A DNA stretch of 64,000 bases from NCBI GenBank assembly GCA_024790105.1, contig GCA_024790105.1_3053.1. One strand, written 5' to 3'. How positions within the stretch are numbered: position 1 is the first letter of the stretch; each line of letters begins with the position of its first letter. A program made the position numbers and the translations under genes. Shown here piece after piece: positions 1,503-57,613 of the stretch. The notes under the pieces were generated by a model that did not search any database, was not told where the DNA came from, and worked only from the letters and a program-made list of their open reading frames with translations. This stretch comes from a phage.

Positions 1503-2199
<697 letters not shown>

Positions 2200-2200
<1 letters not shown>

Positions 2201-2913
2201 TATAGTACCTTTAGTGTATTTTTAATTTTAGAAAAAAGTTCTTCAAGAGAACCATCGTTTGTAATTACTAAATCGCCATCACGAATTGGCAATCCAGCTT
2301 CTGTAATATGTGTATCATTGGATTTTTGACCAGGACGAACTACATGAATTACTGTAGCACCCATCGCCCTAGCCGCATCCATTTCATGATCTTGACGAGT
2401 ATCAGGAACGATATAATAATCATAACCTGAGTTAAATTTATCAAGATAATCTAAAGCAAATAATTTTACCCAATACATGCGGTCGAAGTTATTAACAATC
2501 AAATCCGTACCTAGGGCTTGCATCAGACGACGGACTGACCATTGATCTTCAATATTATTTATAACGTCAGCAATCTTGTTAAATGCTACGAAATTAACTG
2601 CGTCATCAAAAACAAACACACCTTTAATTGGGCTTTTACTATTAAGATAGCAAAATGCTTGTTCCATAATCGTAATTACTTCTAATTTAGTCAGATTTAA
2701 ATTAGTTTCACGATCATAGTCAATTCCTTCAAACTCTTTACGAGTTAAACAAGGATAGTCAGTGTTTTCTGCAAATACACCCCATGCATAAGCCAATGCA
2801 TCTTTAATAGGACCAGCAAGTTGATATTTAACTGCAGAATAATTATTCATGATAAAATCTGCAGTAGTATCTTTTCCACTGCGCTTTACACCACTTAAAA
2901 AGATTAGTTTCAT
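2200..2913 (-). CDS. 1: deoxynucleoside monophosphate kinase (gp1)
   Basis: MKLIFLSGVKRSGKDTTADF P-loop start; ATG at 2911-2913 preceded by GAGGAG; ORF-track start at 2952 is probably an upstream extension. Confidence 0.9.
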
Positions 2914-2962
2914 GTGTTTCTCCTCAAATTTAATTAAGATTATAACACACAAAACTGAAGCA

Positions 2963-3493
2963 TTAAACTTCTGCTATAATTTTTCCATCTTTTTCTACTT
3001 GAAAATAGGTGTAAGGAATCGTTGCAGTACATACTAAAGCCGGGTCTGAATCTTCCGTGTAGCTAAATTCTACTTCAGACAGATCAGAAACCCAAGGCTT
3101 ATAAAAATTTATTGACATCACGATTTCAGTTTTACTATTATCTAAAATGTAAAGCGTAATGTATTCAGGACCTGTTTTTTGGGCAGTATTTTCGCCTGTA
3201 AGATAGTTGCTAGTTCCTAGCATCCATTCATACATTCCTATCCATGACTTAAGTTCTTCATCAACTATAAATCTCACGATGAGTGGGTCGTACTCAAATG
3301 TAACACCTGGACGTTGTGCTCGGCCTAGTCCAAACGGCCCAGTCACGGTATCAGTAACAGGTATCCTAATTCCCGGAATAGGAACTGACTGAGCATTTAA
3401 AGTAAAAGCAGATGTAGTATTACTATGTGGTATTGATACTACAAAGTTAGTTGTATTTGCTTGGTTAAAAATTTGTTGCAGAGCTTGCGACAT
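2963..3493 (-). CDS. 3: tail completion / tube terminator protein gp3
   Basis: synteny 1-3-2-4; internal ATG (MSQALQQ...) with GAGGAA RBS gives 176 aa. Confidence 0.75.
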   Translation of the reverse strand: MSQALQQIFNQANTTNFVVSIPHSNTTSAFTLNAQSVPIPGIRIPVTDTVTGPFGLGRAQRPGVTFEYDPLIVRFIVDEELKSWIGMYEWMLGTSNYLTGENTAQKTGPEYITLYILDNSKTEIVMSINFYKPWVSDLSEVEFSYTEDSDPALVCTATIPYTYFQVEKDGKIIAEV

Positions 3494-3599
3494 ATATTCC
3501 TCATAATGCTTTATAACTGTTAGTGGTATAATGGGTCTAAGTCCCTTCCATTCAATTCCATTTAGAACAAACAACAGAAAAGAATGGAAGATAATAGAA

Positions 3600-4424
3600 T
3601 TAGATATTTGACCAGACTTTGTTTGCAGAGAAACGTTTTCCTTTGGAGTAGAAGCTTTGGAGTGGCATCAACACAACGTTCGCCCAGTCTTTCGGGGCGA
3701 TTTCAACAAGGCTACCCATAATATTACCGGGTATATATGCCTTAATCATTTGGTCTGCACCCCTAAATCCTTTCACTTGACTCCAATCAATTTTTAATTT
3801 CGTTTTATTAGTAATAGTAGGTGTATTTGAATATTGCTTTAAAAGCTCTTCTAGAAATTGCTGACGAGCTTTAGGTGGAATATAGTGCAAGTTTAATCCG
3901 TACATTAAATTATGCTTACCTAAACCAAGGTAAATTATCAAAGGAAATTTATCCCAGTAAGGAAGAGTTTCCTTGTGTTTAGCATCATAAGCAAAAGCAT
4001 ATATTCGTCCCGGCTGCGGGCGAACAACTTTATGTCCTTTTACTTGCTTAATAGTTTCAGCAAACCATTTTCTGGTTTTATTATTAATTGCTGCGCCTTC
4101 ATTACGAATTTTATCACGCAATGTTTGTCTGAATGAATTTATCATAAGCAGTTGTCTTTCTTGCTTATTGAGCTTATTCATTGGTTTTGATTCAAGCTTT
4201 TGAATCTTTTCAGCTGTTTTAATTCCTGAAGCATATTTTGACATTGCTGAAGTAAACGTAGAGTATTTGATTCCTCTTTCTTCAGCAAATTGCTTTCCTG
4301 TCATTCCTTTTGCTTTGGCCTTTTTGTATTCAAGACCTATCTGAATCCATTTCTTTTCGTTTAATGATTGCTTAACCTTTGGAACTTGGGGAGTGCTTTC
4401 ATTAATTATTTGAAAAATAGCCAT
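3600..4424 (-). CDS. 2: DNA end-protector protein gp2
   Basis: 274 aa, basic protein; synteny. Confidence 0.8.
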
Positions 4425-52151: not shown

Positions 52152-53116
52152 TGTATTCTTTAGAGGAATTTAATAATCAAGCAATAAACGCAGATTTCCA
52201 ACGTAATAATATGTTTAGCTGCGTTTTTGCAACAACTCCATCAACTAAAAGCTCTTCGTTGATAAGTTCAATTAGCAACTTTTCTTATAATAACTTGGGC
52301 CTAAATTCAAATTGGTTAGGATTAACTCAAGGTGATATTAATCAGGGAATTACCACGCTAATTACAGCTGGCACACAAAAACTGATAAGAAAATCAAGGG
52401 TTAGTAAATATCTTATTGGTGCCATGAGTCAACGTACAGTTCAAAGTTTATTAGGCTCATTTACAGTTGGTACATATTTAATTGACTTCTTTAACATGGC
52501 ATATAACTCATCTGGATTGATGATATATTCCGTAAAAATGCCAGAGAATAGATTATCCTATGAAACTGACTGGAATTATAATTCTCCTAATATTCGTATA
52601 ACTGGGAGAGAATTAGACCCTTTGGTTATTTCATTTAGGATGGATTCAGAAGCTTGTAACTATCGTGCAATGCAAGACTGGGTTAACGCTGTTCAAGACC
52701 CAGTAACTGGACTGCGTGCTTTGCCACAAGATGTCGAGGCAGATATTCAGGTTAATCTTCATGCTCGTAATGGATTACCTCATACTGCGGTGATGTTCAC
52801 CGGATGCATTCCAATATCAGTGAGCGCTCCTGAGTTATCATATGATGGAGATAACCAAATAACTACATTTGACGTTACTTTTGCGTACAGAGTGATGCAG
52901 GCTGGAGCAGTTGATAGGCAAGCTGCGCTTGAATGGCTTGAATCTGCTGCTATAAATGGTATTCAAAGCGTTCTCGGAAATAGTGGAGGTGTTACTGGAC
53001 TATCTAATTCGCTTTCACGACTCAGTAGATTAGGGGGAACTGCTGGAAGCATTTCAAACATTAATACCATGACAGGAATTGTCAATTCGCAAAGTAAAAT
53101 ATTAGGAGCAATATAA
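52151..53116 (+). CDS. 54: baseplate tail tube initiator gp54
   Basis: 321 aa; synteny. Confidence 0.85.
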   Translation: MYSLEEFNNQAINADFQRNNMFSCVFATTPSTKSSSLISSISNFSYNNLGLNSNWLGLTQGDINQGITTLITAGTQKLIRKSRVSKYLIGAMSQRTVQSLLGSFTVGTYLIDFFNMAYNSSGLMIYSVKMPENRLSYETDWNYNSPNIRITGRELDPLVISFRMDSEACNYRAMQDWVNAVQDPVTGLRALPQDVEADIQVNLHARNGLPHTAVMFTGCIPISVSAPELSYDGDNQITTFDVTFAYRVMQAGAVDRQAALEWLESAAINGIQSVLGNSGGVTGLSNSLSRLSRLGGTAGSISNINTMTGIVNSQSKILGAI

Positions 53117-53120
53117 CAAT

Positions 53121-53150
53121 GGGGACCTTTCGGTCCCCATATTTTTATTT
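53121..53150 (+). terminator. rho-independent terminator after gene 54
   Basis: GGGGACCTTTCGGTCCCC hairpin followed by ATATTTTTATTT. Confidence 0.7.
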
Positions 53151-53441
53151 ACGAAATGAAATGAAAGCAGCAACTGAAGCAACTAAACTGTCTTCAATAT
53201 AAACTTCAATTTTTACCGGAGCTTCTGACTCAAATTTACCTGTTACTACACCTTGAAAAATACTTTCAGTCTGTTCTGGCTTTGAAAAATTTTCAGAAGG
53301 AAAAATTAAAATTCCGAACTTTTTATCTGTTCCAAAAATTTTGATAAATTCATCATAAACTGCTTCATTAAAAGCATTATCAGCAGGAATAACGCCTTCA
53401 ACTACAAGTTCTTGACCTAAAAAGCGCAAAGAAGATTTCAT
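53145..53441 (-). CDS. hypothetical protein (alt-upstream small ORF)
   Basis: 98-aa ORF. Confidence 0.5.
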   Translation of the reverse strand: MKSSLRFLGQELVVEGVIPADNAFNEAVYDEFIKIFGTDKKFGILIFPSENFSKPEQTESIFQGVVTGKFESEAPVKIEVYIEDSLVASVAAFISFRK

Positions 53442-53473
53442 TTTGTGTTCCTCATGTTATGTCAGTAAGACTA

Positions 53474-53863
53474 CTATAACACAAAACGAGGGACTTGTAA
53501 ACTACATTTTGAACTTTTTAGTACGCGTAATAGGCATGCGTCGATTTTATACTGTTTCATTGTTTGAAGAGCAGTATCAAAAACGGCGTTAATGACACCA
53601 ATTGGATTTCCACCTAAGTTTTTAAGCTTAACTAATGATAGTTTCTCATTAACACCTATCATTACGATATGCATCATTTTGTCGCCTGGCTTAACGTTTT
53701 TATTCGTATCACCGCCAGAGGTGTATGTACAAAATCTAAATCCAGGAAGCACGCTTTCTTCGCCGGCTTGAATAGCAAAAATTTGTGGTATTTTATGCTT
53801 AGGATTTAAGTTAACAACCGGCGCCGAAGCGCCGTTAAATAATTATGTAATAAGTTCCATGAT
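53474..53863 (-). pseudogene. truncated alt paralog (N-terminal ADP-ribosyltransferase fragment, in-frame stop after codon 5)
   Basis: translation ...PGFRFCTYTSGGDTNKNVKPGDKMMHIV...QTMKQYKIDACLLRVLKS parallels Alt residues ~40-130; upstream homology (MELIT) is followed by TAA. Confidence 0.55.
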
Positions 53864-55915
53864 TTATCCTTGAACGAACTTGTAAGGCATATTTGCAATA
53901 TCTATGCAAGACGCAATAATTCCAAGAGATGATTCTACTTTCTGTTTAACATTTGATGAAACAAATGATGCAAAGTCAACTCTATCTTCTATATCACCTG
54001 TCATTGTAACCAATTCACCAGTTTCCATTAAATGGTCTCCGTCATAGATTACAGATTCGGTGAGTTCTTCTGTGGTCATAACTTCAGCTTGAATAAGCTT
54101 GTTGTTAGTTCTAACTGTTCCATCGTTGTAAGATGCATCGGTTATTTTATTAACTTTGACCATTAATCCACGTGGCAAAATGACTTCCATTTCATTTGAA
54201 GGCGCTAAACTTCCACCGGGTAAAACAACATTGACCTTATCAGCCCCAGTAATAACCCATCCAATTCCAACTAAATTATCGCTAGAATTTACTAGTCCTT
54301 CATCAGTTTTATCAATAGAAACACTTAGACGCTTTTCGTCTGGTAAAACACCTATAGATGAATCAGTCATCCAAGTACCAAAAATATTTGGATATAATGA
54401 TGTTGACACAAAGTTTCTAAAATAAAAAACTCGATTTTTTACCATTGCTTCATATATTGAAGGTAACATTCGTTGTGAACGATACAAAGTAATACCTTTT
54501 GGTAATCGTTCACCATTTTTAAAGGCTGAATCTAAATTATCAATGGCTTGTTCTATTTCAGGTGCTGTTAAAATACTTGTACGCTCATCTGGATTATATA
54601 ATCCCAAAAGAGCATTATTCATGTCTACATATCCTGAACCTACATATTCACGAATTCCGCGTTTTTGCGCTGGTGTGTATTTAGATGAATCTTTATTTTC
54701 GACTATAGGATGTAATGACCATCCAGCGGTAAGAGCATATCCACGTAATTCTCTTCGAATAATCTTTGTTTTTATTGCATTCCAAGAATTTTGCACTAAC
54801 TCATTTGCAGCGTCTTGATTTAAATGCGAATGCTTGTTAATATTTCTTTCTAACCAAGCACCTTTATATTTTTCTAAGGTATCATCGACGATAGAAGCAA
54901 TAGTTTCTAAAGTTTTTATTGAAGTAATAGATTCTTTTCGTAATTTTTCTAAAGCTTTATTTTTTATTTCTGCATTAATAATGGATTCTTTATCTTCAGG
55001 AATTATAGAAGCTTCTCTGAATGCCATCCCAGCTGTAACACTACTAAGAGCATTCTCTAATGCAAATCCTGAAGTAGAAATAACAGTTAATTCATTAGCA
55101 TCAGAAATTAAAGGAGCGTCAGCAGGTTTATTTAATTCTGCCGCTGAAGCCTCAAATTTTTGAAACATCGGCGTTTCAAATCTAGAAGATTCCAACGACT
55201 GACTTTGTGCAATTGCTCTACGGGAAATTTTAACTTTAACGATTACAGCTTGGTCAGAACGTTTATCATTTTCTTGTGCAATAGATGCTGCAATTGCCTC
55301 ATTTTTAGTTACTTGGGCTCCAGTATCTTTATTGATATAAACATCACCGACCTTCGATTCAACTTTAGTAAAGAGCTCGGTACTAATTTCCGGAACTCCT
55401 GGAATGTCTTCTAGTGATACATTTTTGCGATGTATAAGAATATATGCATACTTTTTATCGTAATCCCAGAGTTCCTTAAGAAGGACGTATCTGCCACCTG
55501 AACGACTACGGATAAGTCTATCAGCAATAACTTGAATTTGTCGAGCTTGACCAGCGGTTTTAGACTTAAGAATACGAAGCATACAAGCATCAATTTTATA
55601 CTGACGCATTGTTTGCATTGCAACAGTAAAAACCGAATTGATATAATTAATTGGGCTTGGACCAAGACCTTTCAATTTAGCAATTGAACCTTTAGCGGTT
55701 AATGTAAAAGGAACAATATGCATCATTTTATCGCCCAGTTTTAAATCGCGATTAGTATCACCTCCAGATGTATAGGTACATAAACGAAAGCCTGGTTGTT
55801 CAATTGCATCATCAACATGAACTGAAAAAATTTGCGGTATTTTCTTCTTTGGATTTAAGTTTGTAATTGGAAGAGTAGTATCTTCGTCAAATAATTCTGT
55901 AATTAGTTCCATCAT
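53864..55915 (-). CDS. alt: Alt ADP-ribosyltransferase (packaged head protein)
   Basis: 683 aa; R / STS / ExE-type ART motifs (YRSQR, VSTSLYP, NEMEV). Confidence 0.85.
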   Translation of the reverse strand: MMELITELFDEDTTLPITNLNPKKKIPQIFSVHVDDAIEQPGFRLCTYTSGGDTNRDLKLGDKMMHIVPFTLTAKGSIAKLKGLGPSPINYINSVFTVAMQTMRQYKIDACMLRILKSKTAGQARQIQVIADRLIRSRSGGRYVLLKELWDYDKKYAYILIHRKNVSLEDIPGVPEISTELFTKVESKVGDVYINKDTGAQVTKNEAIAASIAQENDKRSDQAVIVKVKISRRAIAQSQSLESSRFETPMFQKFEASAAELNKPADAPLISDANELTVISTSGFALENALSSVTAGMAFREASIIPEDKESIINAEIKNKALEKLRKESITSIKTLETIASIVDDTLEKYKGAWLERNINKHSHLNQDAANELVQNSWNAIKTKIIRRELRGYALTAGWSLHPIVENKDSSKYTPAQKRGIREYVGSGYVDMNNALLGLYNPDERTSILTAPEIEQAIDNLDSAFKNGERLPKGITLYRSQRMLPSIYEAMVKNRVFYFRNFVSTSLYPNIFGTWMTDSSIGVLPDEKRLSVSIDKTDEGLVNSSDNLVGIGWVITGADKVNVVLPGGSLAPSNEMEVILPRGLMVKVNKITDASYNDGTVRTNNKLIQAEVMTTEELTESVIYDGDHLMETGELVTMTGDIEDRVDFASFVSSNVKQKVESSLGIIASCIDIANMPYKFVQG

Positions 55916-55935
55916 ATCCTCTCTATTGTTTATTC

Positions 55936-55943
55936 TATTTATA
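55936..55943 (-). promoter_or_regulatory. late promoter TATAAATA (alt)
   Basis: exact TATAAATA on minus strand ~21 nt upstream of alt start. Confidence 0.55.
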
Positions 55944-55964
55944 AAATTAAAGGCCCGAAGGCCT

Positions 55965-56153
55965 TTAATAATCTAACGGTAAGAGAGTACGATATATTTC
56001 AAACTTTGGACCTTTTTCATAAGCATCAAATGTTTCTGTGAATTTATTATAAGCATATGCATCTACAAATTCGAGAATGACTTGTGATACAGAAGTAGAA
56101 ACATCTCCACCTTCTTTTTGAGCAATGACAATTGTTTCTAAGTAAGCTTTCAT
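55965..56153 (-). CDS. hypothetical small protein
   Basis: 62-aa ORF overlapping gene 30 stop. Confidence 0.45.
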   Translation of the reverse strand: MKAYLETIVIAQKEGGDVSTSVSQVILEFVDAYAYNKFTETFDAYEKGPKFEIYRTLLPLDY

Positions 56154-57613
56154 AGACCAGTTACCTCATGAAAATCGCCAAATACATCTTCGAACGTATT
56201 AGCTTTAGTTTTATCTTCACGTAAACGAATCGCAATCGGAAGAAATAATTTAACGTAATCAGTGCGGCCATCAGATTTTAACCAACCGTTGCATTCGCAC
56301 TCTAGAATTTTTCCAATATAATAATTTTGGTTTTCCATAATGCGAGTACGGTCAAGTTCATGCGATTTTACACCGGCTTTATCTTTTAAGCCTGAACCAG
56401 CATTTACTTTAATTTTTCCACACTCTGATTCAAGAATAAATCCACCTGCTTTAGTAGGGTCTTTACGGTGAGGATAAATTCCTACAATTTTTAAATCAAC
56501 ATCAATTACTTCTTTAAATTTATAGAGATTTTTTGAACGAGCATTTTCCCATAATCCATCGATATTTTTGAGAATAATACCTTCAAGACCTTGGTCAATA
56601 TACTTTTTATAAATTACCTTAGCTTCATCTAGGTTATTTACTACCTGGTTTTCAATTAAAATTACTTTATCATAGCCTGATGTCATTTGTTCTAGTTTAG
56701 AAAAACGTACATCATATTTCAAACGAAATGCAGGAAGACCGTATATTTCTACCAATGGAACATAATCCCAGACCTGAAACTTCATGCATTGAGCTTCTTT
56801 TTCTGAAATAGTTCCCTTCAAAGATTTATTGGCAATTCCATTAGATGTAGTACGTGATTCAGCTACTTCTGTGAAGTCTTTAACTTTGCTGTTTTCAGGA
56901 TGAGCATCAAAAAGAAAATCTAGGCCTTCTGGCTCCTTTTTAACTTGCTCATGGTATACCAATTCGCCATCAATTAACACGCCTTCTGGATGAATCTGGC
57001 GGGCTTCAGCAGTCATTTTGATTAATTCTTCCTTAAGAAGATCTAATCCTAGATATTCATTACCAGCTCGTGATAAAAGACGAACATCATCTAATTCATC
57101 ACCTCTGACTTCGGCAAAGCACCGAGCTCCATCAGCTTTTAACTGGGCAAAGGCTGGAAATTTGATATTCTTATTAATGCCTTTTTCATCATAAGAACTT
57201 GCAAGCATTTGAGGTTGTTCAGGAATTAAACCTGGCCAAACTTTGTTTGCAATAGATACTGAAGCACCACATTCAAGGTCTCGCATCATCACCCGACGCA
57301 AAACTTCAACATCATCTTTTTTACCGTCAGCAATATATCCAGTTAATTCCTCAATTGCTGCATTTCCAGTCAATTTCCGAGTAGCTAATGTGAATTCAAT
57401 GAAGTCAAGCATATCGGTAAGAGTCAACATTCCAAAACTCTGGGTAGCAATACCCGGTTTAGGCCATTTCTTGATATAATACTGCAACCCACGAGAATAA
57501 GTCAGACGATATACTCGTTTAAGCAATTCATTATCTTTATTCTTTTCAAGAATTGCTTGCTTCTGCTTAGTTGAACCAATAGATGCTATTTCGTTCAGAA
57601 TTTTAAGAATCAT
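56150..57613 (-). CDS. 30: ATP-dependent DNA ligase gp30
   Basis: 487 aa; ligase motif I KADGAR. Confidence 0.95.
   Translation of the reverse strand: MILKILNEIASIGSTKQKQAILEKNKDNELLKRVYRLTYSRGLQYYIKKWPKPGIATQSFGMLTLTDMLDFIEFTLATRKLTGNAAIEELTGYIADGKKDDVEVLRRVMMRDLECGASVSIANKVWPGLIPEQPQMLASSYDEKGINKNIKFPAFAQLKADGARCFAEVRGDELDDVRLLSRAGNEYLGLDLLKEELIKMTAEARQIHPEGVLIDGELVYHEQVKKEPEGLDFLFDAHPENSKVKDFTEVAESRTTSNGIANKSLKGTISEKEAQCMKFQVWDYVPLVEIYGLPAFRLKYDVRFSKLEQMTSGYDKVILIENQVVNNLDEAKVIYKKYIDQGLEGIILKNIDGLWENARSKNLYKFKEVIDVDLKIVGIYPHRKDPTKAGGFILESECGKIKVNAGSGLKDKAGVKSHELDRTRIMENQNYYIGKILECECNGWLKSDGRTDYVKLFLPIAIRLREDKTKANTFEDVFGDFHEVTGL

Follow-up and report, generated by a model that had tools for sequence, protein, structure and literature searches.

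The alt locus and its neighboring genes

The window, that is, the whole 64,000-nt stretch of phage DNA that we analyzed (contig GCA_024790105.1_3053.1), is a segment of a Tequatrovirus (T4-type) genome. The 2.9-kb region examined here shows 97-98% identity to many T4-like phages of Escherichia, Shigella, Yersinia, and Salmonella, and about 96-97% identity to T4. The nearby plus-strand genes are 29, 48, and 54, and the minus-strand genes are alt.-3, alt, alt.1, and DNA ligase. Between alt.-3 and alt lies the subject of this study, a short stretch resembling the beginning of alt and most likely a gene remnant. The order alt / remnant / alt.-3 / gene 54 matches that of T4. The main features are as follows:

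53145-53441, minus: alt.-3, 98 aa, DUF5498 (Pfam PF17602, E 1.2e-62), intact and downstream of the remnant
53474-53752, minus: 92-aa open reading frame (ORF) with a GTG start, made of ancestral codons 37-116 plus 12 frameshifted codons
53474-53860, minus: whole remnant (pseudo-alt.-2), which begins with the ancestral ATG (53860-53858) and whose 5' frame now runs on to a TAG (53476-53474), through 116 ancestral and 12 out-of-frame codons
53843-53845, minus: nonsense codon TAA (E6*), ancestral codon 6, GAA to TAA
53867-53870, minus: AGGA, the Shine-Dalgarno sequence of the ancestral alt.-2 start, within the final codons of alt (…CAAGGATAA), aligning with alt's own AGGAT-ATG region
53864-55915, minus: alt, intact packaged ADP-ribosyltransferase and paralog of the remnant (Pfam PF03496, E 7e-34), labeled alt in T4 and relatives
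55936-55943: late promoter of alt, recognized by the late-promoter motif (TATAAATA)

At the other end of the locus, a strong bidirectional terminator-like hairpin (53119-53140; 9-bp stem with 6 GC pairs) separates the convergent genes 54 and alt.-3. It is also marked as a terminator on both strands in the fPS-2 and ASO78A records.

The remnant resembles the N-terminal part of Alt

The original prediction aligned the 92-aa ORF with Alt residues ~40-130. Our BLASTP comparison with the window's own Alt supports the homology but shortens it: ORF residues 3-80 match Alt residues 41-118 (52/78 identities, 67%, E 4e-36), where the similarity ends, and the final 12 residues (SKCSLQVPRFVL) are not Alt-like. 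The proposed relationship to the 5' region of alt is also significant at the nucleotide level. When 53440-53900(-) was compared with 55400-55960(-) by blastn, 147 of 210 positions were identical (70%, E 7e-23) in a match that begins at the Shine-Dalgarno AGGA and ATG, and a second segment pair covered 37/50 (74%, E 6e-5). Upstream of the ORF, the homology indeed reaches back to a start that is interrupted at codon 6, as had been noticed before: the 5' frame reads ATG GAA CTT ATT ACA TAA, giving M E L I T and a stop (53845-53843), where the Alt counterpart reads M(M)ELITELFDED.

Profile searches agree with this relationship. The remnant ORF matches phrog_15247 (the T4 alt.-2 family) over the full 67-position profile (E 1.2e-48), phrog_23015 (the T4 alt.-1 family; E 1e-9), and positions 41-120 of phrog_802 (Alt; E 6e-35). 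No Pfam domain was found in the 92-aa ORF, whereas Alt and the RB14 Alt.-2 both match PF03496. The catalytic motifs of ADP-ribosyltransferases (ART; R / S-T-S / E-x-E) are absent from the remnant, and the catalytic region falls in the 1699 bp described below. No model in Pfam or NCBIfam detects the N-terminal region, and a PDB sequence search returned the ART domain only, with weak matches to CdtA-type toxins.

A comparison with the T4 ORFs beside alt had been suggested as a check, and it identified the remnant as the counterpart of T4 alt.-1 (T4p199, 61 aa) and alt.-2 (T4p198, 67 aa), with the same locus, the same 1699-bp junction, and ~96% nucleotide identity. T4 differs by a 1-nt deletion in an A-run at nt 160 that creates two overlapping ORFs, whereas the window keeps the frame, carries E6*, and has one 92-aa GTG ORF. 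Phages fPS-2, SG1, and PTE-Eco15 are arranged like the window, which also has the private changes D9N and F111L.

The remnant is orthologous to the ends of a full-length alt paralog

In RB14, T2, T6, HP3, Sf21, Sf25, IME339, RB27, APTC-EC-2A, YUEEL01, and BCPSen_003, as well as in three metagenomic or IMG/VR contigs, the position of the remnant is occupied by an intact gene of 2058 nt and 685 aa, which is labeled alt.-2 in RB14. Its coding sequence begins 3 nt past the alt stop (RB14, T2, and T6). The product aligns with Alt from end to end (41% identity, E 5e-164) and carries PF03496 together with LYR 480, STS 507, and EAE 587. This gene, also annotated as 'Alt-like RNA polymerase ADP-ribosyltransferase' (RB14, T2, T6, HP3, Sf21, and RB27), is orthologous to the remnant over the first 116 codons and the final ~20 nt, and differs from it in keeping the 1699 bp with the PF03496 ART domain. 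Over the first 348 nt of intact alt.-2, the remnant shows 95-98% nucleotide identity (RB14, T2, T6, HP3, and one IMG/VR contig) but only 65% identity to the window's own alt. Past nt 348, the window runs straight into the final ~20 nt of alt.-2 and then into the alt.-2/alt.-3 spacer. Two further features mark this transition:

53513-53521, minus: deletion junction, the sole remaining copy of the 9-bp repeat CTAAAAAGT
53502-53504, minus: original alt.-2 TAG stop, out of frame with the 5' part (RB14 coding sequence end: …ATG TCT AAA AAG TTC AAA ATG TAG)

In intact genes, CTAAAAAGT occurs at nt 339-347 and again at nt 2038-2046 from the ATG, exactly 1699 bp apart; of the seven intact genes inspected first, six show this exact spacing, the exception being Sf25, where no exact left copy is present. 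A single copy joins both flanks in the window and in T4. Because 1699 is not a multiple of 3, the 5' frame passes the original TAG and stops 12 codons later, which leaves 12 foreign C-terminal residues. Judged from the aligned genomes, this architecture is the signature expected of a deletion between short direct repeats.

Further lesions and relaxed constraint in the remnants

Our alignment comprised 21 remnants of the deletion type together with 14 intact genes, 35 of ~480 genomes. All 21 remnants carry a further disabling lesion. E6* stands alone in four (the window, fPS-2, PTE-Eco15, and SG1), 11 have only the frameshift caused by one missing nucleotide in the A-run at nt 160 (the T4 state, creating the ORFs alt.-1 and alt.-2), and both lesions occur together in five; 235Ecol030PP combines both with a second 1-nt deletion, which lies inside the ORF. 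In total, E6* is present in 10/21 remnants versus 0/14 intact genes. The ancestral frame is open from codon 37 on in the four phages with E6* alone, and the 67-codon ATG ORF (T4 alt.-2) is open in 20/21 of the remnants sampled.

The two classes also differ in their substitutions. Among the first 116 codons of the 14 intact genes, we counted 35 synonymous variants against 10 non-synonymous ones, of which seven lie in a single gene-conversion patch copied from alt in APTC-EC-2A. The variants private to remnants comprise 5 synonymous, 12 non-synonymous, and 1 nonsense change (18 substitutions from 21 partly redundant genomes), and the contrast of 5:13 with 35:10 is significant (Fisher p = 3.7e-4). 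Under neutrality, 22-28% of changes should be synonymous, and both halves of the remnant agree with this (binomial P 0.29-0.74). These counts indicate that the remnant is under relaxed constraint and that the N-terminal 116 codons of intact alt.-2 are under purifying selection. With the out-of-frame 1699-bp deletion and E6* set against an intact 685-aa alt.-2, they bear out the earlier suggestion of decay into a pseudogene. A constraint on the downstream half, hinted at by a smaller set of 7 intact and 13 deleted genomes, was gone with 14 intact genes, as several 'private' changes proved to be shared polymorphisms.

Several observations concern exchange at this locus. In APTC-EC-2A (L149), alt.-2 carries at nt ~145-180 from the ATG (locus ~2585-2620) a patch, GGAGGTGATACTAATCGCGATTTAAAAATGGGCGAT, encoding NRDLKM, that matches the alt gene of this phage exactly, whereas the usual alt.-2 residues at this site are NKNVKP; the patch is a case of gene conversion between alt and alt.-2. 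Alleles of alt differ in length (2049, 2058, 2088, or 2094 nt) with no dependence on the intact or deleted state of alt.-2 (window 53864-55915; records L003, L014-L016, L009, L144, and L145), and E6* and the -1 frameshift are found in all combinations; both patterns point to frequent recombination (mosaicism) across the locus. Moreover, two T4 records (L005, NC_000866.4, and L004, OZ209057.1) differ by an AC/CA swap at remnant nt 50-51 (N17T in the ancestral frame, inside alt.-1), owing either to different strains or to a mistake in one of the records.

Distribution of the intact and deleted forms

Of 477 phage records, 90, including T4 and RB59, match a 111-nt junction probe over its full length. 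In the remaining records sampled, the probe splits into halves 1-60 and 52-111, whose overlap is the 9-bp repeat. It follows that the intact gene is the common state, present in roughly 80% of records (~387/477). Pattern scans of IMG/VR yielded few relevant contigs: the junction was present in two and the hairpin described below in three, one contig being common to both. The hairpin pattern GACGGCGCTTCGGCGCCGG performed poorly in a metagenome scan: it gave at least 120 matches, nearly all of those listed being unrelated GC-rich soil contigs, and the only T4-like ones among the matches listed were L085 (intact type) and L094 (deletion type).

Promoter and hairpin sequences at the two ends of the remnant

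Two elements within or at the edge of the remnant could have roles of their own:

53473-53501, minus (to 53502 with the leading G): predicted T4-early-type promoter of alt.-3, with (G)TTTACA, a 17-nt spacer, and TG-n-TATAGT (GTTTACA-N17-(TGt)TATAGT)
53819-53834, minus: CGGCGC-UUCG-GCGCCG hairpin, 30-45 nt past the alt stop, encoding G10-P14 in intact alt.-2

Among the minus-strand sigma-70 matches in 53050-56200, the promoter ranks first (10/12, with TG), and both hexamers are almost invariant in the 35 genomes. The record of vB_EcoM_ASO78A marks a 'T4 early promoter' at the same spot, and T4 alt.-3 is early for both RNA and protein (Wolfram-Schauerte et al. 2022, PMC9697503 Table S2). The -35 element, the spacer, the extended -10 element, and an early-expressed gene are all in place, so that, as far as its sequence tells, this element has the makeup of a T4 early promoter for alt.-3. 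The element lies just downstream of the junction, and its -10 hexamer contains the stop codon of the 92-aa ORF.

The UUCG hairpin has a centroid fold of -12.8 kcal/mol and is unchanged in 35/35 aligned sequences. As an intrinsic terminator it was rejected: it lacks a U-run, the terminator scan did not call it, and its fold z-score in context was unremarkable. The absence of synonymous variation in its five codons is not significant by our estimate given the overall variant density, and among the 35 sequences no conservation beyond coding constraint and sample size could be demonstrated. The hairpin may possibly have a function, for instance as a cis element. At the corresponding codon positions, alt itself contains a 5-bp inverted repeat, GAAGA-TACTAC-TCTTC (55870-55885, minus), and a stem-loop at codons ~9-14 may be common to both paralogs.

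The remnant as a potential source of protein

It had been proposed that the fragment could still be packaged or act as a decoy, and we found no support for this. T4 Alt is a late product with ~40 copies in each head, and gp21 processes it at both termini, its N-terminal propeptide being 7 residues long (PMC9026906). In the window, the Glu codon of MELITE is the one mutated to TAA, so a gp21-site propeptide (L/I-x-E on the mature chain) is missing from the open frame; the 92-aa ORF starts 31 codons past this stop and is cut off from MELITE. Translation from the ancestral alt.-2 start would halt after five residues, and sequence inspection revealed no convincing Shine-Dalgarno sequence ahead of the GTG (53752) or the internal ATG-ATG (53677-53672).

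When Alt residues 1-260 were modeled with AlphaFold (pLDDT 79.6, pTM 0.77), secondary structure continued to residue ~240, and of this predicted ~240-residue domain the ORF would span no more than strands 39-79, helix 87-104, and strand 109-115. There was no evidence for a stand-alone family of this domain: a homolog search with the 240-aa N-domain returned six proteins, all of them fragments or shortened Alt-like ORFs. Three of the Alt-like ORFs seen, P0001, P0002 (Salmonella phage Melville), and P0005, have 323-379 aa, contain the N-terminal half only without an ART domain, and cover phrog_802 from position 1 to ~311-380; in other T4-like phages, they may represent additional cases of alt having been shortened or split.

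The T4 counterparts alt.-1 and alt.-2 are transcribed with class 'middle', and their proteins were undetected (Wolfram-Schauerte et al. 2022, PMC9697503 Table S2), although non-detection by shotgun proteomics is weak evidence for peptides so small, and it concerns T4 rather than the window phage. It seems that the remnant yields no protein product in the window phage.

DISCUSSION

The feature itself is already known. Paralogous duplications beside alt include RB49ORF183c, 44RRORF188c, and 44RRORF187c of T4-like phages that are more distant, one of them full length, and T4 alt.-1/alt.-2 have been listed as paralogous duplications of alt as well (Nolan et al. 2006, PMC1524935). The T4 RefSeq note describes alt.-1/alt.-2 as an 'old duplication of the first part of gene alt, into which a stop codon and new …', and the fPS-2 record describes an identical 92-aa ORF as 'similar to N-terminal of … Alt; putative pseudogene'. 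Our analysis adds an incremental clarification, namely that the remnant is the stump of a full-length, widespread paralog, shortened by a repeat-mediated 1699-bp deletion and evolving neutrally. We found no statement of this refinement in the accessible papers or records.

We consider it very probable (about 0.9) that 53474-53860 on the minus strand is a non-functional remnant of the full-length tandem alt paralog alt.-2, produced by the 1699-bp deletion and subsequent decay. The starting point would be a full-length tandem paralog of alt that is still intact in most Tequatroviruses. In a lineage including T4 and the window phage, a deletion between the two CTAAAAAGT repeats would have removed codons 117-682, presumably by microhomology-mediated illegitimate recombination or replication slippage. 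The whole catalytic domain would thereby have been lost and the 5' stump joined out of frame to the final ~20 nt. The stump would then have decayed, the window changing GAA to TAA at codon 6, T4 losing one A from the A-run, and several phages acquiring both lesions, and the 92-aa ORF would be what stays open after the nonsense codon. Sequences with a likely function, the alt.-3 early promoter and possibly the C(UUCG)G hairpin, would predate the deletion. The relation to T4 Alt (gpAlt), a packaged mono-ADP-ribosyltransferase, is accordingly that of a paralog: the ancestral N-terminus MELITELFD is common to both, whereas Alt is intact and the remnant has neither the catalytic domain nor, on its open frame, the propeptide.

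Two other histories of the locus have to be compared with this deletion. The original prediction, like the wording of the T4 RefSeq note, took the stretch for a partial tandem duplication of only the first ~130 codons of alt that later decayed, which would account for its homology to the N-terminal part of Alt only. We regard this as highly improbable, since most relatives have at this locus an intact 685-aa paralog whose 5' end is orthologous to the fragment (95-98%), while the adjacent alt is only 65-70% similar, and since the fragment ends with alt.-2's own 3' end, joined at a 9-bp repeat that occurs twice in the intact gene. A secondary fusion of such a fragment with a foreign ART module is countered by the colinear, whole-length homology of alt.-2 to Alt. 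The opposite polarity, in which the short form is ancestral and T2/T6/RB14-type phages gained an insertion, has its source in the T6 record (L015, MH550421.1), where the intact alt.-2 (CDS 2113-4170) is described as having an 'apparent insertion in alt.-2'. The probability of this course of events is close to negligible: the supposed insert prolongs the match to Alt in colinear order across the catalytic domain as far as the C-terminus, giving a single 685-aa frame, and an insertion should hardly re-create a complete colinear homolog of the adjacent gene. In addition, the short form changes frame at the junction and has extra lesions in every remnant aligned, and intact genes are in the majority. 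By this comparison, the polarity is the reverse of that in the T6 note, the event being a deletion in T4.

A different question is whether the stump, once formed by the deletion, encodes a functional small protein from the 92-aa GTG or the 67-aa ATG ORF, for example one that is packaged or competes with Alt for prohead-core binding. The openness of the ORF in the window and of its 67-codon version in nearly all remnants speaks for such a product, as does the transcription of the T4 region, where the alt.-1 stop overlaps the alt.-2 start (ATGA) and would permit translational coupling. In the window, however, the TAA at codon 6 removes any upstream translation to couple with, neither start has a good Shine-Dalgarno sequence, and the ORF lacks the MELITE propeptide and covers only part of the predicted domain. 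Further points against it are the neutrality of the private substitutions in both halves, the extra frameshift within the ORF of 235Ecol030PP, and the lack of any such protein among those detected in T4. We therefore hold a functional product to be very unlikely. There is likewise only a slim chance that the stump is not wholly inert and has for that reason been retained instead of disappearing, with the UUCG hairpin acting as a 3' stabilizer or attenuator of the late alt mRNA, or a 67-92-aa N-domain piece modulating the incorporation of Alt into the prohead core.

The decayed paralog is of little importance for biology at large. For annotation, it means that T4 alt.-1/alt.-2 and the 92-aa ORF of the fPS-2 type are pieces of one pseudogene and should be named neither hypothetical proteins nor 'ADP-ribosyltransferase'. 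For the biology of the group, it means that T2, T6, and ~80% of sequenced Tequatroviruses have kept a second Alt-type enzyme, apparently with catalytic competence and probably packaged as Alt is, that is missing from the laboratory model T4, so that conclusions on 'the three T4 ARTs' do not extend to the genus.
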